DNA of 64,000 nt, taken from the IMG/VR virus record IMGVR_UViG_3300047322_000556, positions 25,362 through 89,361 of that record. One strand, given 5' to 3'. Below are positions 12,120 to 48,221 of the stretch, piece after piece (positions within the stretch are counted from its first letter, which is position 1; each line of letters opens with the position of its first letter). This DNA is from a virus. A model generated the notes under the pieces. That model saw only the letters and a list, made by a program, of their open reading frames with translations, made no database searches and was not told where the DNA came from. The position numbers and the translations under genes are program-made.

Positions 12120-12161
12120 TTTATCTCTGAGGTTGACATTTATCCCGTTAGTGCCTAACAT
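12120..12161 (+). promoter_or_regulatory. sigma70 promoter with two overlapping operators
   Basis: TTGACA(12133)-17 nt-TAACAT(12156); TTTATC-N5-GGTTGA over the -35; GTTAGTGCCTAAC over the spacer and -10. Confidence 0.75.
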
Positions 12162-18088: not shown

Positions 18089-18502
18089 ATGGGTTTCGTT
18101 TCTGCAATTGAGCTGCAAAAGCCGATCGTTCGCAATCGCATCAAGAAGGGCGTCGCGATTTCGACCATCCGCAACAATGACGAGGCGTATCTTCAGGTGC
18201 GCATCGACAACGAGACGCTGAAGGAAGCGCGCTTGTTCGTCGGCGATCGCCTCGATGTGCTGTTCGATAAGGAAGGCCGCCTCGGGCTCGTCAAGCGCGT
18301 GAAAGAGGGCGGCTGGCAGTTGACGACGGCAGGCGATAAGGCGGGCCGTGTTCGCGTGCGTTGGGCTCCGGGTCTGCCGCATACGAGCGAGTTTGTCGAA
18401 ATTTTTGACGTGACGGCCGATGAAACTGAGGGCGTCATGTTCCAGTTGCCCGAAGCTGTGACTTTCGTCGGCTCGCCGAAGTTTTCGGAAGCCAAGGCAT
18501 GA
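18089..18502 (+). CDS. hypothetical beta-rich protein (AbrB-like appearance)
   Basis: AAGGA RBS; LQVRIDNETLKEARLFVGDRLDVLFD. Confidence 0.7.
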   Translation: MGFVSAIELQKPIVRNRIKKGVAISTIRNNDEAYLQVRIDNETLKEARLFVGDRLDVLFDKEGRLGLVKRVKEGGWQLTTAGDKAGRVRVRWAPGLPHTSEFVEIFDVTADETEGVMFQLPEAVTFVGSPKFSEAKA

Positions 18503-18765
18503 AGCGCATGGCTGTTGCGGCGATTCTCGCGATCGTTACTGCGACTGCGCTTGCGAAGGGCGGCGGCGGCGGTGGTCACGGTGGTGGTGGCGGTCATGCG
18601 AGCGCAAGCGCGCATCCTTCCGCCTCGGCGCATCCGGTGACGTCCGCGCACGCTGTCGAGTCGCCCGCGCCGCATGCTTCGACGTCGTCGGGCAGTCGTC
18701 CTTTCTCTTGGTTCTTCGGTGGATCAAGAGGCTGCGACAAGTCGAAGCAGCAGGATTGCAAGTGA
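18499..18765 (+). CDS. small secreted Gly/His/Ser-rich protein
   Basis: Signal peptide MKRMAVAAILAIVTATALA, poly-Gly tract, terminal Cys pair. Confidence 0.7.
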   Translation: MKRMAVAAILAIVTATALAKGGGGGGHGGGGGHASASAHPSASAHPVTSAHAVESPAPHASTSSGSRPFSWFFGGSRGCDKSKQQDCK

Positions 18766-18769
18766 TTCC

Positions 18770-19779
18770 TGTGAAGAGGGAGAGTCGCCGGACTTAAATC
18801 GGGGAGTGGCTCGCCTAACGAGCCGCCTCAGAAGAGCGGCCCGCCGTCGTCGCGCCGACGTAAAAGTGGCCGTAGCTCCGTATGTCGATAGGCAAGGGTC
18901 TTTAGCTCGCGTTTGAGCCCTTTCCGTACACAGGGCCGCTCTTCTGAGGTTGCGCGTGGTGTGCAAAGCCGCGCGCGAGCTTCGAATGACTGGCGTAACC
19001 AGTTGGGCCGCCGACCGGCGGTGAGGGGCGCAAGTCGCTTCACCGTCAGCCCGGCAACGAATTCTTCCTACGGGTACTCGCGCGAGCGAGTTTGGAATGC
19101 TGGCAGATATCCCGTTGAATGATCCAGCCCCCGGCGATGCGGGTGTAATCATCAGGTGGCCGTCACCATGAGCATCGTTAATCCTCGGCCGCGTGGCTCC
19201 CGTAAGGAGCCGCCCGCAAAGCGCATTCGCTGAGTGCTCTTTGCGGGTCTGGATGACTACCTTTCAAGACGGACCCTGTAAATGTCCACGAAGGCGCGAT
19301 CAGCTCTGCGTTACATGCGACGACTGACTGCCGTAAGCAGTCATCTCACGCGAAGCATTTGGGTCGGTGCCACCAGCAGTATGCCGATCTCCCCGACCGA
19401 TCAGCGCGAACACGTCATCGGTTCAAATGCTTCGACGTGAGATTAAGCGGTCGCAGCCGCTCGGAAACGTCGCGAGACGCTCCTGACTGCCGGGAAAGTA
19501 CCGGCCCAATTTTGTGTGACCCGCGATGTTGGGAACTACGACCGTAGCCTCGGCGGCCCTTTCGGGGGATAAACGAGGACGAGGATTAGCAGGCGAGTGC
19601 CTCGGCAGCAAAACCCTTGCAGCACAGCACGACTATCCTAACCGCCGTTTCGCTCTAGCTTCGAGCGCGGTCGTCGGGGCTGATCGACGCGAGAGACGAG
19701 AACGGCGTCGCGCGTTCGTTTGCCGAGTGGCTCCCGTAAGGGGCCATGCCCGACTTGCCGCCGTAAGTGGCAGCCCTTC
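18770..19779 (+). ncRNA. candidate large structured non-coding RNA(s)
   Basis: No credible CDS; dense hairpins, six C[GC]TAA pentaloops, GNRA/UUCG tetraloops and long-range stems; abuts tRNA-Tyr. Confidence 0.65.
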
Positions 19780-19866
19780 GCGTGGGTAGTCCCGTAACGG
19801 TATCGGGGGGAGACTGTAAATCTCTTGCCTTCGGCCTTGGTGGTTCGAATCCATCGCCACGCACCA
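19780..19866 (+). tRNA. tRNA-Tyr (GTA)
   Basis: Acceptor GCGTGGG/GCCACGC, anticodon arm GGAGA-CTGTAAA-TCTCT, long variable arm, GGTGG-TTCGAAT-CCATC T arm, encoded ACCA. Confidence 0.92.
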
Positions 19867-19882
19867 TATTTTCGGAGTCTGA

Positions 19883-20371
19883 ATGTCTCGTCGCGTCAAG
19901 CTGGTGCTGCTCGGTGTGGTCGTGTTCATCGCGATCGCGATTCTCTTCTCGTCGTGCAGCTCGCGCGAGTACTCGACGGCATACGCGCCGCAATATGCGC
20001 CGCCGGTCGTCGCGCAAGCGCCGATCATTCAGCCCGCGCCGATCGTCCAAGCTGCGCCGGTCGTCGTGCAGCAAAACGACGGCTTCATTCATGGCCTTCT
20101 GCTCGGGCACATGATGAGCGGCGGCGGCAGTCATTCGGTCGTCCATCACTACGATGCGCCGCGCCCGGCATACGTCGCGCCGCGCACGACAGTCGTCAAT
20201 AACACGACCGTCATCAATCGCCCGGCCGCGCCCGCATACGTGCCGCCAAAGCCCGCTTACGTCTCTCCGAGGCCCGCATACGTCGCGCCGCGCGCAACGT
20301 CCTACGCGGGCTCCTATGCGTCGCGATCGAGCTATTCGTCCGTGACGTCGCGCGCAGTCTCACGCCGGTAA
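19883..20371 (+). CDS. membrane-anchored or lipoprotein-like Pro-rich protein
   Basis: N-terminal hydrophobic segment ending FSSC; (R)PAYV repeats; GGAG RBS. Confidence 0.75.
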   Translation: MSRRVKLVLLGVVVFIAIAILFSSCSSREYSTAYAPQYAPPVVAQAPIIQPAPIVQAAPVVVQQNDGFIHGLLLGHMMSGGGSHSVVHHYDAPRPAYVAPRTTVVNNTTVINRPAAPAYVPPKPAYVSPRPAYVAPRATSYAGSYASRSSYSSVTSRAVSRR

Positions 20372-20388
20372 CGCTCAAGGGGCATCGC

Positions 20389-20508
20389 ATGTACATGACC
20401 GATCTATTCGAAAGCCTGAGCATGTGTATGAACGCCTACGCGCGCGCCGCGTGGCTGTGGTCGATCGAACTGGATCGGCTTTCGGCGATGTGCTCGACGC
20501 GCAAGTAG
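20389..20508 (+). CDS. small hypothetical protein
   Basis: MYMTDLFESL..., AAGGGG RBS. Confidence 0.35.
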   Translation: MYMTDLFESLSMCMNAYARAAWLWSIELDRLSAMCSTRK

Positions 20509-20670
20509 GGCTCTGACGTATCGCGCCGGGTGTCGTTCAGCGCGTAACAGGGGTGGACTTCAGTGATGACCCGACCCGGCGCGATACGCGAGAGTCCAAT
20601 GCAAGGGTAAGAGCGGGTGAGTGCATCAATATCCCGCCGCTCTCAACCCAATTTCAACGAAGGAGCCGAT

Positions 20671-21069
20671 ATGTCGGACGTGCAAGACAACACCGCAGCG
20701 CAAGACGCTGATATCGAACAAGCCGCGCAAGCCGTGGATCAAGCCGCCGCGACGGAAGTGTCCGCAAGCGACGAACCGGCTGTGACGGCTGACGCATCGG
20801 CTGAAGTGCCGGTCGATACGGCGCCGGACGCTCAAGCGCCCGCGACCGATGCTGACGTCGGCGAAGCTGCCGATGCGGCGAAGGACGATGGCGACGCCCT
20901 GGCGGGCGATGTGCTCGACGCGGCCGAAGAGCTGATCCATCCGGCAGTCGGCGAGCTGAACACGCTGCGCGCGACGATCCGCGCCGAGCTCAATGCGATT
21001 CTGACGGGCATCAAGACGCGCGTGCATAACGGCGAAGCGCATCTCGAAGCGCTGATCTCGCGCCTGTGA
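20671..21069 (+). CDS. acidic low-complexity hypothetical protein
   Basis: AAGGAG RBS; Asp/Ala-rich N-terminus, helical C-terminus. Confidence 0.75.
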   Translation: MSDVQDNTAAQDADIEQAAQAVDQAAATEVSASDEPAVTADASAEVPVDTAPDAQAPATDADVGEAADAAKDDGDALAGDVLDAAEELIHPAVGELNTLRATIRAELNAILTGIKTRVHNGEAHLEALISRL

Positions 21070-21160
21070 AGCGTTTAGACGTCCAGCGATGGGCGTCTCT
21101 CAAGTCTCTGTCCGCTTCGGCGTGATGGAGCTGGTTGCCGATCCACAAACGCGGCGGACT

Positions 21161-21184
21161 GGCCGCCCTAAGCGGCCTTTTTTT
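21161..21184 (+). terminator. intrinsic terminator
   Basis: GGCCGC-CCTAA-GCGGCC followed by a T tract. Confidence 0.75.
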
Positions 21185-21195
21185 ACGACTATGGG

Positions 21196-21681
21196 GTGAC
21201 GATGTTTATTCGAAGTGTGCTCGCCGAGATAGGCGCGTATTACGGCACTCGGCGCGGCGTGGGGCATACGACGTGCGCTCTGCGCGGCATGGGCGAGCGT
21301 GTCGAGGCGGCGACGATCAAGCCGCTCATGGTGGTCGGCACGCATCAGCACGGCCGCATCATGGCCGGTCAGATCGGCCGCAATTTCACGACGCTCGGAA
21401 ATATTGAAGGCGGGGCGCTGCGCGGTATCGACCGGCCGCTCGTGTGGGATAACCATGCGATCGCGCTGCTGGCGATGAATTCGTCGCAGGAGATTGAGCG
21501 CGCCGAGCGGGAAAAGTTGGACGCGCTCGCGATGGCCGAGCGAACGCGCATGGATCTAGTTTCGGCGCGTCGTGAGCTCGTGGCCGTCGAACAGAAGTGC
21601 GCCGAGCTGCGCGACGAACTCGCGACGGCGCGCGCGAACGCGGCGAAAGCCACGTTCACGAAAAAGCGCGGAAAGCGCTGA
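21196..21681 (+). CDS. hypothetical protein with C-terminal coiled coil
   Basis: 161-aa ORF with typical codon usage. Confidence 0.65.
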   Translation: MTMFIRSVLAEIGAYYGTRRGVGHTTCALRGMGERVEAATIKPLMVVGTHQHGRIMAGQIGRNFTTLGNIEGGALRGIDRPLVWDNHAIALLAMNSSQEIERAEREKLDALAMAERTRMDLVSARRELVAVEQKCAELRDELATARANAAKATFTKKRGKR

Positions 21682-45063: not shown

Positions 45064-45257
45064 TGCTGTGCTTCCTCTGCGATTCGCTTGATTCGCCGCA
45101 AGTCGGCGAGTTTGTTTTTCCAGCCCCGATGATCGGTATTCGTGCCGGTGATGGTGACTGTCGCGCCGTAGAACCGATAGACGTCGTGCCTGCCGTGGCG
45201 CACGAACGTGCCATGCGCCTTCAGAAGCGCCGTCACGGCCGCCTTGGGGCAACTCAT
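45060..45257 (-). CDS. HicA-like dsRBD-fold protein
   Basis: LLKAHG.FVRHGRHDVYRF..TVTI.GT.TDHR..KN..ADLRR. Confidence 0.55.
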   Translation of the reverse strand: MSCPKAAVTALLKAHGTFVRHGRHDVYRFYGATVTITGTNTDHRGWKNKLADLRRIKRIAEEAQQ

Positions 45258-45781
45258 GCCAAGAGCCCAGAAAACGGCGTCACGGTCTGTTTGCGCGCCT
45301 TGGCATTGATGACGAGCCGCATCTTCTTGCGATACTTCTCGCTCGCCTTCTTCGGGTTGAATTTGGGCTCGGGCGCGTCCTTCTTGTTGCCGATCGCGAA
45401 AACCGGCCTGTGCTTGCCGGCGCCTTCGGGTGCAATCCAACGGCTCACGTAGATGATCTTCGCCAAGCGGAATTCTCGAAGCCGATTGCGCACGGTGCGC
45501 TCCTTCAGATTGAGCGCCACGCGCAGATCGCGATTCGTCGCCTCGCCTCCCTCGGCGTCGGCGATCGCCTTCAGCATGAGCGTCTGAGTCGGGTGAAGCG
45601 GCTTCTCGGTCGGCTTCGTCTGAGCGCGCTTGTGCCACTCGGTGAGCGAGATGACGAAGGGCGTCTCGCGCGGGCGGCGCACCATGACGTAGCGATCGCG
45701 CACCACCATGCAGACGACCGGGCCGATTTCATCGACGTAACGCGCACGCTGGCGTGGCGGGCGAAGTTCTAAAACGGACAT
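45254..45781 (-). CDS. HTH-domain protein
   Basis: ATNRDLRVALNLKERTVRNRLREF; AAGGA RBS. Confidence 0.7.
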   Translation of the reverse strand: MSVLELRPPRQRARYVDEIGPVVCMVVRDRYVMVRRPRETPFVISLTEWHKRAQTKPTEKPLHPTQTLMLKAIADAEGGEATNRDLRVALNLKERTVRNRLREFRLAKIIYVSRWIAPEGAGKHRPVFAIGNKKDAPEPKFNPKKASEKYRKKMRLVINAKARKQTVTPFSGLLA

Positions 45782-45804
45782 TACTGGTTCCTTCTCGGTG
45801 AATT

Positions 45805-45838
45805 TCTACCGCTTCGGTAGATTTACCTGAAGGATAAA
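45805..45838. promoter_or_regulatory. tandem 17-bp operators in a divergent promoter region
   Basis: TCTACC-N5-GGTAGA immediately followed by TTTACC-N5-GATAAA. Confidence 0.7.
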
Positions 45839-45884
45839 CTATTTTCCTTGCCTTGTGGGTACTTGGTGAGGAAAAATAGCGCCC

Positions 45885-47057
45885 ATGACGAATGAACGCT
45901 ACACCTTGCATCACGGCGACTCCCTTGCTGTGCTTGCCTCACTGCCTGAAAACTCGGTCGATTCGATCGTCTGCGACCCGCCCTATGAGCTCGGCTTCAT
46001 GGGTAAAGCGTGGGATAAAACCGGCATCGCGAACAACGTCGATCTGTGGCGCGCGGCGCTGCGCGTGCTCAAGCCCGGCGGGCATCTGCTCGCGTTCTCG
46101 GGATCGCGCACGTATCACCGCATGGCATGTGCTATTGAAGATGCGGGCTTCGAGCTGCGCGATCAAATCATGTGGGTCTACGCGACGGGCTTCCCGAAGT
46201 CGCGCAATCTTGGCGAAGGGCGCGGCACGGCACTCAAGCCCGCGCACGAACCGATCTGCGTCGGACGCAAGACGCCCGAAGGCACGGTCGCGGCGAACGT
46301 CGAAAAGCACGGTCCCGGCGCGCTCTATATCGATGCGTGCCGCGTCGGCGACGATGTGCGTCACGAACGATTCACTTCGTTCGCTGCCTGTCATGGCAAC
46401 TCGTTCGGCGCTCCCGGTACAGCCGAAGCGCGGCGCGGCACGCAGGGCGACGCGAAGGAATACGTCGGCCGCTGGCCCGCGAACGTCATTCACGATGGAT
46501 CGCCGGAAGTCGTCGCGCTCTTCCCTGAATCGAAAGGGCAGCGCGCCGCTGTGAGCGGCAACGAGCCGAGCTCGAAAACGAACAACGTATTCGGCAAGTT
46601 CGACGGCCGCCCGGCGACTGCGCCGCGCGTGGATCTCGACACGTCGGCCGCGCGCTTTTTCTACTGTCCGAAGGCGTCGCCCGCCGACCGTCACGAAGGG
46701 CTCGATCGGCCCGGCCCGCAATTCAAGAAAGGCACGACGCTGCGCAAGGTGCAAGTCGCCGCCGCCGCTGGCGAGCTCACCGGTAACACGCATCCGACCG
46801 TGAAGCCGACCGAGCTCATGGCCTATCTGTGCCGCCTTGTGACGCCGCCGGGCGGAACCGTCCTTGATCCATTCATGGGCTCGGGCTCGACTGGCAAGGC
46901 CGCGATGCGCGAAGGCTTCAACTTCATCGGCATCGAGCTCGAAGCCGCGTATGTGGCGATCGCCGACGCGCGCATCAAGCACGAGCTGCTCAAGCAAGCG
47001 CCGCCGCCCGCCGACGAGCGCCAGCTCGATCTGCTTTCCTCCCTTTCCGGCTTCTGA
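45885..47057 (+). CDS. N6-adenine/N4-cytosine DNA methyltransferase (beta class)
   Basis: CDPPY precedes HPTVKP and VLDPFMGSGSTG. Confidence 0.93.
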   Translation: MTNERYTLHHGDSLAVLASLPENSVDSIVCDPPYELGFMGKAWDKTGIANNVDLWRAALRVLKPGGHLLAFSGSRTYHRMACAIEDAGFELRDQIMWVYATGFPKSRNLGEGRGTALKPAHEPICVGRKTPEGTVAANVEKHGPGALYIDACRVGDDVRHERFTSFAACHGNSFGAPGTAEARRGTQGDAKEYVGRWPANVIHDGSPEVVALFPESKGQRAAVSGNEPSSKTNNVFGKFDGRPATAPRVDLDTSAARFFYCPKASPADRHEGLDRPGPQFKKGTTLRKVQVAAAAGELTGNTHPTVKPTELMAYLCRLVTPPGGTVLDPFMGSGSTGKAAMREGFNFIGIELEAAYVAIADARIKHELLKQAPPPADERQLDLLSSLSGF

Positions 47058-47060
47058 CCC

Positions 47061-47285
47061 ATGACCGAACAGATCCATTCCCTCATGCGCGAGAACGCCC
47101 GCCAGCTCGCGCACTCGCGCGCGCAAGGTGCGCAACTGCGCCGCGCCGCGCAGGCCGAGCTCGCGCAAGTCGAAGCCAAGCTCGAATCGATGGCGCCCGG
47201 CGGCGTCGTCGCGGACCCGGCCCGTCGCGATGAATACATGACGCTCGTCACGCAGCGCGATCAGCTTCGGCGCGCGGTCGCGTGA
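47061..47285 (+). CDS. hypothetical protein
   Basis: 74-aa helical ORF. Confidence 0.6.
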   Translation: MTEQIHSLMRENARQLAHSRAQGAQLRRAAQAELAQVEAKLESMAPGGVVADPARRDEYMTLVTQRDQLRRAVA

Positions 47286-47383
47286 TGGCGTTCGTTTTTT
47301 TCATGTTCGCCCTCGTCGCGCTGCTGGTCGATTGCCCGTGGTTCGCGCTGCTCTTCGCCATTTTCATGATTAATTCAATCTGA
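47285..47383 (+). CDS. very small membrane peptide (32 aa)
   Basis: MAFVFFMFALVALLVDCPWFALLFAIFMINSI; TGATG coupling at both ends. Confidence 0.45.
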   Translation: MAFVFFMFALVALLVDCPWFALLFAIFMINSI

Positions 47384-47727
47384 TGATCCATCTCCATCTG
47401 ACGTTCGCGCAAATGTGTTTCTGGATGATCGTGTTGCACATGGTCGCCGACTATCCGCTGCAAGGCGACTTTCTCGCGACCGCGAAGGATCGCAACACGC
47501 CGCTCGGCAAGCTCTTCTGGCCGCACGCGCTCGGCGCGCATTCGCTAATCCATGCGGGCTTCGTCGCGCTCGTGACGGGCTCAATAGTGCTCGGGCTGGC
47601 TGAAGCAGTCATTCATGCCGTGACCGATTTTTGTAAGTGCGAGAAACGAATCTCGCTCAACGTCGATCAGGCGATTCACTTCGCCTGTAAATTCCTTTGG
47701 GCCGCGATCGCGGCAGGAGCTCTGTAA
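47383..47727 (+). CDS. DUF3307-like membrane protein
   Basis: HMVADYPLQ, HSLIH, HAVTD..K, VDQAIH motifs. Confidence 0.85.
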   Translation: MIHLHLTFAQMCFWMIVLHMVADYPLQGDFLATAKDRNTPLGKLFWPHALGAHSLIHAGFVALVTGSIVLGLAEAVIHAVTDFCKCEKRISLNVDQAIHFACKFLWAAIAAGAL

Positions 47728-48221
47728 TGAAAAAACTGTTCTACGGTGTCTTTCTCGTCGTGGCGCTCGCCATGATGGCATTCAACGTCTACACGGCCGC
47801 TCAGGACGTGCAGGCGGCTCGCGGCTGGCCCGCAACGTTTCACGCGCTCATGACGCTGCTGTGGCTCGTCTCGGCGCTCGACGCCGTGGGCGCGCTCGTG
47901 CCGCGCTTCAAGACATGGATGAAGGCACGATGGCGCGCGCTGCAGTTCGTGCTCGATGAATACCGCCTGTATCGCGAGATTTGCTATGCGAGCGCCTTCG
48001 TCATTCCGGTGCTTGCCTTGCCTCTATTGGCCTTCGCCGTCGTCGTAGTCGCGCTTCTGACGCCGTTTCATTACGCCTATTGCTATGTGCGTGACGAGTG
48101 GATCAGTACACGCAATGCCCGACGTGAAATGGAGCGCAGCTATCGAATCAGCCGCGAAGCGTTCGCCAGAGCCAAGGCCGCCACAAGCGACGTGCTCCCG
48201 AAAGCCGCCACAAGCGCCTAA
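47727..48221 (+). CDS. membrane protein
   Basis: MKKLFYG...; three hydrophobic segments; TAATG coupling. Confidence 0.65.
   Translation: MKKLFYGVFLVVALAMMAFNVYTAAQDVQAARGWPATFHALMTLLWLVSALDAVGALVPRFKTWMKARWRALQFVLDEYRLYREICYASAFVIPVLALPLLAFAVVVVALLTPFHYAYCYVRDEWISTRNARREMERSYRISREAFARAKAATSDVLPKAATSA

Follow-up and report, generated by a model that had tools for sequence, protein, structure and literature searches.

A small stem-loop with a five-base C(G/C)UAA loop occurs six times within about 1 kb of non-coding DNA in the phage genome of IMG/VR record IMGVR_UViG_3300047322_000556, and related stem-loops recur in phages of Burkholderia, Bordetella, Pseudomonas and uncultured soil hosts. The analysis was made on a 64,000-nt window of this virus record, to which all coordinates refer, the record in full being 89,361 bp. 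The constraint on the loop and 5' flank of the element, together with covariation of its stems, supports its interpretation as a selected, strand-specific element of RNA type, with RNA presumably the active form. The function we favor, with a probability of roughly 0.4, is that of a unit-boundary hairpin, a stem-loop of the terminator type without a U-tract that would act in processing and stabilization and that has been multiplied in this phage to punctuate an island of stable RNAs. What appears to be new is hence a boundary hairpin that is conserved and specific in sequence, in a phage island of stable RNAs that is unusually rich and has further, seemingly undescribed motifs. The hairpin has no Rfam family, no paper containing its sequence was found, and a literature search on stem-loops at phage capsid genes found no paper either. 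Annotations of phage genomes usually leave the tRNA regions empty; in the present case such a region is a mosaic of conserved structured RNAs joined by one hairpin.

The hairpin and its conservation

The hairpins were located by reading positions 18500-21400 and by a stem-loop scan of the whole window in which G-U pairs were allowed, and all six of those that an earlier sequence-only reading of this DNA had reported were confirmed in this way. They lie on the + strand within 18806-19775, five with a CGUAA and one with a CCUAA loop, on stems of 8, 7, 8, 7, 8 and 7 bp (G-U pairs included) starting at 18806, 18987, 19193, 19325, 19727 and 19755. From 5' to 3' they are H1 (18806..18826, GUGGCUCG-CCUAA-CGAGCCGC, scoring 27.3 bits with a covariance model of the element, R1, that had H1 in its training set), H2 (18987..19005, UGACUGG-CGUAA-CCAGUUG, 25.2 bits), H3 (19193..19213, GUGGCUCC-CGUAA-GGAGCCGC, the 5' neighbor of the P1 hairpin and the core motif introduced below), H4 (19325..19343, UGACUGC-CGUAA-GCAGUCA, 41.1 bits), H5 (19727..19747, GUGGCUCC-CGUAA-GGGGCCAU, which includes U-G pairs, 21.2 bits) and H6 (19755..19773, UUGCCGC-CGUAA-GUGGCAG, 36.9 bits), the last lying 10 nt 5' of a tRNA gene. 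A seventh member, at 21156..21184 on the same strand, reads GACU-GGCCGC-CCUAA-GCGGCC followed by U7 (33.8 bits). Its hairpin at 21161 (GGCCGC-CCUAA-GCGGCC, T7) is an intrinsic terminator with a CCTAA loop, as previously described, and is the strongest terminator-like site on the + strand. It carries the GACU-GGCCGC...GCGGCC sequence of the element, with U7 replacing the A-C tail, and a U-tract is present only there, being absent after all six other window copies.

The frequency of these hairpins departs strongly from chance, and the enrichment over shuffled sequence that the sequence-only reading had named as a check is borne out. The 1018-nt stretch that holds them has six hairpins with stems of at least 6 bp, whereas 2000 dinucleotide-preserving shuffles averaged 0.0015 and never gave more than 1; over both strands of the whole genome there are seven, and 200 shuffles averaged 0.475 and gave 4 at most. 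The scan of the window found no such hairpin on the - strand, and the whole 89,361-bp record has seven on the + strand and none on the other. The terminator at 21161 is the sole hairpin of this kind with at least 5 bp besides the six, in the window as in the whole record, and the only other matches to the hairpin pattern in the window are two with 4-bp stems. With R1, the seven copies score 21-41 bits and the rest of the window at most 12 bits; the training alignment included the seven, so that their match is by construction and the gap beneath them is the informative part. The six stems fall into three sequence families, GGCUCC (18806, 19193, 19729), GACUG(G/C) (18987, 19325) and UUGCCGC (19755). 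The differing stems had been taken as internal covariation, an argument that three families make weaker than implied; the compensatory changes seen across phages, on the other hand, are genuine.

In its general form the element consists of 5'-C-GA(C/G)-U, a G+C-rich stem of 6-7 bp, the loop C(G/C)U(A/U)A and the returning stem strand, then A/G and then C, and at the sequence level the copies follow (C)GAC-U-GRCYGC-CGUWA-GCRGYC-A. A pattern leaving two stem pairs free matched 63 IMG/VR loci, against about 3 expected by chance on a rough estimate; these represent 50 distinct copies, in 46 of which the two free pairs are complementary. When 49 distinct copies were aligned, 98.8% of the cells were paired and five of the seven pairs showed changes on both sides, a result matched by none of 500 shuffles, and shifting the partner strand cut pairing to 15-52%; five of these pairs had, however, been set by the search pattern. 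With the commonest stem fixed and the loop left free, 44 loci yielded CGUAA 26 times, CGUUA 8, CGCAA 3, CCCUA 2 and CGAUA once, with four others. The base preceding GACU, which lay outside the search pattern, is C in 53 of 54 contexts, and the first base past the hairpin is C in 37 and G in none, which holds the helix to its length. A run of at least four T follows the element in 8 of the 54 foreign copies and is lacking in the other 46, and the commonest form (16/43 foreign copies) has U ahead of a G-C first pair and A-C-C after the stem. G-U pairs form on the + strand only, and all copies are co-oriented with the tRNA and the flanking genes.

Conservation in related phages, the other check named in the sequence-only reading, is seen in all six Burkholderiales-type loci (the window, L004, Burkholderia phage Mica, L009, L132 and L133), where the hairpin stands at the same place, 47 nt 5' of a conserved RNA motif of about 50 nt, the core, which occupies 19249..19295 on the + strand of the window. 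The loop of this core-adjacent hairpin is CGUAA in three loci and CGUUA in three, on four different stems. For the six loci, RNAalifold predicts the hairpin together with three helices, P1, P2 and P3, with compensatory changes at 11 of 32 pairs; three of the six pairs of the hairpin change on both sides, as do 5 of the 16 pairs of P1, a hairpin at 19212..19248 (+ strand) that abuts H3. Among the other window copies, H4 has a counterpart with another stem in Mica, and H6 has a 24-nt match in L009 and the same hairpin in Pseudomonas phage IME307.

Genomic setting of the element

By a loose pattern, five near-complete phage genomes carry one genuine copy each. R1 counts two copies each in Mica, L009 and L133, one in the other positive loci and none in distant core-bearing loci, and the six copies within 1 kb of the present phage are the largest cluster seen. 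Of five bacterial genomes, two have 1 and 3 element matches and three have none; where visible, the contigs involved also carry the core. The element appears, on these sequences, to be phage-specific and normally single-copy. It is intergenic and runs in the orientation of the neighboring open reading frames (ORFs). The 20 upstream genes that were annotated comprise seven for major head proteins and four for integrases, the rest being those for an HNH nuclease, a methyltransferase and proteins without assignment, and the genes downstream are mutually unrelated (glycosyltransferases, methyltransferases, nucleases including a ParB-like one, an endolysin, structural proteins). A sigma-70-like site ending 0-20 nt 5' of the hairpin was found in 0 of 54 contexts by a strict criterion that omits weak -10 boxes, such as one seen by eye in L153. 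A tRNA or tmRNA lies within 600 nt of the element in 6 of the 54 contexts (at random, 1.9 on average and 5 at most), and with only six such contexts the element is not tRNA-specific.

In the window, the hairpins lie in a stretch of about 1.02 kb for which no credible ORF spanning 18766-19783 was found. It leads into a tRNA-Tyr gene with anticodon GTA (19784..19866, + strand; ARAGORN), which starts 10 nt past H6 and whose D-arm region (19795-19808) carries CCGUAACGG, the same CGUAA word as the hairpin loops; ARAGORN found no tmRNA in the window. The stretch contains one described RNA, the Proteo-phage-1 motif (Rfam RF03044; 19542..19624, + strand), at 57.6 bits against a gathering score of 42, and none of the six hairpins falls within it. 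An Rfam search of 18600-20000 at E <= 10 gave nothing relevant beyond Proteo-phage-1, and no GOLLD, ROOL or other large-RNA family. The island is probably an untranslated segment inside a transcription unit of about 9 kb, since the genes on either side all share the + strand, on which the closest upstream promoter-like site lies at 12133 and the gene row ends at the 21161 terminator. That promoter candidate (12133..12161, TTGACA-17-TAACAT), identified by consensus match only (10/12 positions), lies 6.6-7.6 kb from the six hairpins, and no promoter-like site was found in 18300-19780. The eight neighboring ORFs compared with Pfam and PHROGs gave no Pfam match, one PHROG without an assigned function and no RNA-binding or nuclease candidate. 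Contigs from the reads of four DNA runs were all identical to the window, with no natural variation.

Every well-folded segment of the island (H1/M1, H3/P1 and H4/M4) has the same layout, a small hairpin followed without a linker by a long helix. Module M1 (18827..18950, + strand) begins directly after H1 and encloses a branched interior in a perfect 17-bp outer helix (18827-18843 with 18934-18950); H1 and M1 together have a minimum free energy of -74.4 kcal/mol (z = -5.98), and none of 200 shuffles is equally stable. Stacked on H1, the M1 helix may be long enough to consider as a substrate of RNase III. No homologue of M1 and the H2 region was found among the fetched loci. Module M4 (19344..19443, + strand) begins directly after H4 and forms a long irregular helix, UCUCACG...CGUGAGA; against shuffles, H4 with M4 folds at z = -6.57 and H3 with P1 and the core at z = -4.0.

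The unit made of the hairpin and an M4-type helix recurs in ten loci (the window, L001, L009, L159, L169, L170, L177, L184, L192 and L199), with a covarying outer helix of 9-10 bp (ACCUNCACG/CGUGNAGGU type) around a variable interior of 48-110 nt. In seven of the ten units the helix begins 1-2 nt before the last base of the element and so takes in its terminal A. In L159, L184 and L192 the unit follows an integrase gene, and the interior of the L159 unit contains a T-arm-like hairpin. Parallels, with no known kinship in sequence, are offered by the int-sib/tI retroregulation region of phage lambda and by the RNase III sites of phage T7. As in the former, a hairpin and a long imperfect helix stand directly after integrase genes in those three loci, and by analogy the long helices could be RNase III sites whose cleavage leaves a protective hairpin. 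Unlike the lambda region, the unit of the present window does not adjoin an integrase gene; none was found in this genome, and an integrase-linked reading of M4 is therefore inapplicable here.

Comparison of loci shows the hairpin at the breakpoints of exchanged modules. Between L132 and L133, a module of about 150 nt is near-identical through the hairpin and divergence follows directly after it, and at the second hairpin copy the two loci differ before and agree after. The Proteo-phage-1 motif lies 3' of the core in the window and 5' of it in L009, a prophage contig of Caballeronia pedi. These comparisons suggest that the island is an array of separable modules joined at hairpins and not one monolithic RNA. 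At 7990-8100 of L009, modules of the island are separated by two isolated T-arm-like hairpins (GGUUCGAUUCC type), whose tails partly resemble acceptor ends; they may be tRNA remnants or tRNA-like elements.

Three further loci have arrangements of their own. In Bordetella phage PHB04 (L209) the hairpin sits between tRNA-Asn and tRNA-Pro, 8 nt before the latter. It forms part of a 2.7-kb, almost unannotated gap (record positions 45076-47783) that holds tRNA-Met, tRNA-Asn, the hairpin, tRNA-Pro and a permuted tmRNA, with about 500 nt without assignment between tRNA-Pro and the two-piece tmRNA (tag ANDDYIRAAA); the tRNAs and the tmRNA are missing from the annotation listed for that gap. In Pseudomonas phage IME307 (L210, locus 1090-1180) a promoter-like TTGCAT-17-TATAGT follows a repressor gene, a perfect rrn-type boxA-like sequence comes about 60 nt past it and the hairpin about 330 nt beyond that, flanked by two copies of another repeated hairpin (GAUUUCUCAGAUGC...). 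Xanthomonas phage DIBBI (L211, locus 1498-1610) has a degenerate copy whose 5' half (GAUUGGCCGCC) recurs without mismatch at the 3' end of the tRNA-Asn lying 35 nt downstream, a hint that the element may have some kinship with tRNA acceptor ends.

A proposed boundary hairpin and its rivals

In the boundary model, an element with a U-tract would be an ordinary intrinsic terminator, as at 21161, while at the six copies without one RNA polymerase would read through and the folded hairpin would persist in the RNA as a fixed end-marker that resists nucleases. Endonucleases would cut the long untranslated precursor, with RNase P acting at the tRNA and RNase III probably within the neighboring helices of 17-20 bp, and the hairpin would stop exonucleolytic trimming and cap the adjoining module, so that each structured RNA is freed with defined and stable ends. 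In this phage the multiplied element would punctuate an island of about 1.0 kb made up of M1, the P1-core RNA, M4, Proteo-phage-1 and tRNA-Tyr, its recurring borders of about 27 nt doubling as recombination joints, and its constant loop and CGAC flank would be read by a conserved factor. We favor this model because the stem-loop is shared with a real terminator, because it is sited after highly expressed or terminal genes, before tRNAs and flush against long helices, and because extension of its stem is selected against. Read-through of the copies without a U-tract, followed by marking and protection of ends, is what these features of the sequence lead us to infer. The model would also account for the shuffling of modules, since the same 27 nt or so recur at every border and would serve as joints.

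Several observations weigh against this model. Its main weakness is that a pure exonuclease barrier needs neither a fixed loop nor a CGAC flank; these imply a specific reader, which keeps protein-binding models alive. In messenger contexts the hairpin is nearer the downstream start codon (often 6-35 nt) than the upstream stop, a spacing equally compatible with a role in the 5' untranslated region (in translation, antitermination or as a 5' cap), and L153 has three tandem copies after a promoter-like site. Three inter-hairpin segments of the window have no unusual folding energy (z = +0.5 to +0.7). The tally of upstream genes comes from crude ORF calls in G+C-rich DNA and covers 20 of the 54 contexts, most foreign copies were found with a pattern that fixes five of the seven stem pairs and thus under-samples stem diversity, and a run search found no RNA sequencing run containing the stretch.

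A bolder extension, doubtful on present evidence, is that the hairpin is the universal connector of modular phage RNA cassettes, at once a specific processing signal for a conserved host enzyme and a recombination joint for swapping non-coding RNA modules, most expanded in this 89-kb phage, with structured RNAs, tRNAs, tmRNA and even moron ORFs bounded by the same element of about 27 nt. The processing signal is suggested by the commonest form of the element, in which U, a G-C first pair and A-C-C have the layout of an RNase P minihelix substrate. If the connector extension held, phage non-coding RNAs would have a system resembling tRNA punctuation and integrons. The processing and stability signal of the boundary model, if real, would help to predict where phage non-coding RNAs end, would account for the exchange of RNA modules between phages, and would offer a compact insulator part for synthetic operons.

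Among the rival explanations, the hairpins might be loading sites for processive antitermination (boxB- or put-like), the loop and CGAC flank recruiting a phage or host protein or acting directly on RNA polymerase so that it crosses the untranslated, Rho-exposed 1-kb island and the downstream terminators. The boxB hairpin of the lambda nut site, an analogy drawn in the sequence-only reading, likewise has a five-base loop on a short stem and keeps its loop while the stem varies. In many phages, moreover, the element lies in 5' leaders near start codons; the three copies of L153 follow a promoter-like site, the IME307 copy is in an early-operon leader with the boxA-like sequence further upstream, and a long untranslated stretch inside an operon would presumably gain from protection against Rho. 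The boxB pentaloop, however, adopts a GNRA-like fold with G as its first and A as its last base, whereas the loops here begin with C and CGUUA is incapable of such a fold. A nut site also has a boxA a few nucleotides 5' of its hairpin and is a single site not far past an early promoter. In the island no boxA-like sequence is present (a 12-mer with up to two mismatches matches at four places in the window, a number not above that in shuffles, and at none within 18.7-19.9 kb), and the hairpins, six in 1 kb, are far from promoter-proximal. Elsewhere the element often follows capsid or integrase genes or precedes tRNAs, and single copies beside such genes in five genomes are not the distribution of a nut site. 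No shared small RNA-binding protein was found. For a small Mica "putative RNA binding protein", Pfam gave no confident match and tblastn none in the present genome; among the fetched loci it occurs only in Mica and L184. The arginine-rich N-type proteins that serve lambda-type nut sites are too short and divergent to be recognized among the neighboring ORFs. The constrained loop and 5' flank on covarying stems keep recognition by some factor plausible, as the sequence-only reading had proposed; the analogies it named are not supported, and antitermination is unlikely.

We regard as similarly unlikely that the hairpins are co-transcriptional attenuators, that is, terminators that are weak or depend on a factor, or else pause hairpins, which would give the operon graded expression and have no post-transcriptional role. 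The element shares its sequence family with the bona fide terminator at 21161, a T-run follows 8 of the 54 foreign copies, and 7 of the 20 annotated sites come after major head genes, a classic place for attenuation. It also resembles intrinsic terminators and the 3' stabilizers derived from them, which likewise close a gene or unit with a G+C-rich stem of 6-8 bp in the transcribed strand. Unlike terminators, the six window copies and 46 of the 54 foreign ones lack a U-run, and unrelated phages share a conserved CGUAA/CGUUA loop and CGAC flank, which terminators do not require. With six attenuators in 1 kb, the downstream tRNA and two or three further genes would furthermore be silenced, and neither the abutment on the next helix without a linker nor the conserved loop is needed for pausing.

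It is quite doubtful that the element acts primarily as DNA, as a single-stranded hairpin or short repeat serving recombination or mobility (PeSL- or REP/RAYT-like), with its RNA fold incidental. REP elements carry a conserved tetranucleotide 5' of an imperfect palindrome; the present element has a conserved 4-nt flank, CGAC, in front of one, a tetranucleotide different from that of REP. Unlike REP, the element is not many-copy in host chromosomes (the five bacterial genomes above). In favor of a DNA role, it sits exactly at breakpoints between shuffled modules, nearly identical 27-nt copies occur in otherwise unrelated phages, and the genes downstream are often moron-like (glycosyltransferases, methyltransferases, a ParB-like nuclease). 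The PeSLs of T4-like phages, composite promoter/terminator stem-loops (PMC2839356) reported to mediate module shuffling (PMC4122927), are similar short repeated intergenic stem-loops at the borders of swapped modules and points of genetic exchange. Yet PeSLs come with an early promoter, for which the strict criterion found no counterpart here (0/54), and they are many within the hyperplastic regions of one lineage, whereas the present element is common to very different phages and the exchanged modules include non-coding RNAs. The G-U pairs of the stem are A-C mismatches on the other strand and the orientation is strictly co-directional with transcription, which disfavors a DNA-level role as the primary function; the element also sits within RNA structure supported by covariation, and plain homologous recombination at any conserved functional RNA element would yield the same junctions.

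Two further ideas take up the tertiary docking and the sponge analogy of the sequence-only reading. The first makes the stretch one large ornate RNA of about 1 kb of the GOLLD or ROOL type, in which the C(G/C)UAA loops would be tertiary docking modules. It draws on the far better folding of M1, the H3-core segment and M4 than of shuffles, and on the long, ORF-free, hairpin-rich stretch beside a phage tRNA, the setting given for GOLLD and ROOL, which lie in phages or prophages adjoining tRNAs (PMC5737381). It is very improbable, as no covariance model of these or other large RNAs matches even at E <= 10, the architecture is a shuffled mosaic and not a fixed one, with modules in differing order among phages and occurring singly elsewhere, the hairpin also stands alone between protein genes, a UUACG receptor complementary to the loop (a kissing-loop partner) occurs nowhere in the stretch, and three segments have z-scores near or above 0. 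The second, a protein sponge like CsrB or RsmY, would likewise repeat one loop on several hairpins of an untranslated stretch; the determinant of Csr/Rsm binding is GGA in hairpin loops, which no loop here has, the hairpins are separated by large unrelated structured modules, the five near-complete genomes with their single copies do not show a sponge distribution, and the island, unlike a stand-alone sponge small-RNA gene, lacks its own promoter-like site and lies inside a + strand gene row ending at 21161. As judged from the sequence, the hairpin most likely acts as an end-marker rather than a protein sponge.

The core motif and related islands

The analysis also exposed at least two RNA motifs absent from Rfam 15, the core and the hairpin+M4 helix, the latter often after integrase genes. 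Pattern scans and BLAST of fetched loci brought the core to 22 distinct loci (the window, L002-L012, L048, L056, L120, L129-L133, L199 and L203), carried by Burkholderia, Stenotrophomonas and Xanthomonas phages and by contigs in metagenome-assembled genomes of Acidobacteria, Aquaspirillum and Herbaspirillum. A looser pattern matched at least 119 loci, nearly all by chance (106 of 128 matches lack the downstream half), and added only L048. The 5' part of the core is a single-stranded UCUGGAUGAYU segment (CUGGAUGA type). Helix P2 pairs 19260-19265 with 19290-19295 in variable sequence around an internal loop containing CAAGAC; its arms vary in 20 of the 22 loci yet pair, with at least 5 bp in 18 of 22 matched partners against 40% of mismatched ones. 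Helix P3, of 4 bp, pairs 19271-19274 with 19284-19287 and closes a loop ending in UAAAU, and two alternative P3 pairings, GGAC/GUCC or AGAC/GUCU, suit different members.

The core often lies inside tRNA or tmRNA clusters. In 9 of the first 18 loci, tRNAs are found within 1.2 kb of it, and L203, L120 and L131 add tRNAs and a permuted tmRNA. Searched with the window, BLAST against named phages returned non-coding matches in Burkholderia phage Mica, the N4-like Stenotrophomonas phages Piffle and Paxi, and Xanthomonas phage PB119, all four in gaps beside tRNA genes. No Rfam 15 family corresponds to the core (CUGGAUGA/CAAGACGG/UAAAUGUCC), and no paper with its sequence was found. Resemblances of the core noted by eye to tmRNA 5' ends, RNase P, the hammerhead core, C/D boxes and group I P7, and of the hairpin to type I-F CRISPR repeats, were dropped for want of backing by Rfam. 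The literature search gave no match for Proteo-phage-1; the main text of PMC5737381 is silent on it, and the supplements to that paper, which presumably describe the motif and its surroundings, may bear on the undescribed status of the neighboring modules.

After the core, L203 (5310-5400), L056 (1650-1750) and L120 (about 250-330) share a further conserved module (AACACCUUAAACGUGAAU...GCCGGAAACCGGC...) that ends in a clear intrinsic terminator, which suggests that some of these RNA arrays are self-contained transcription units.

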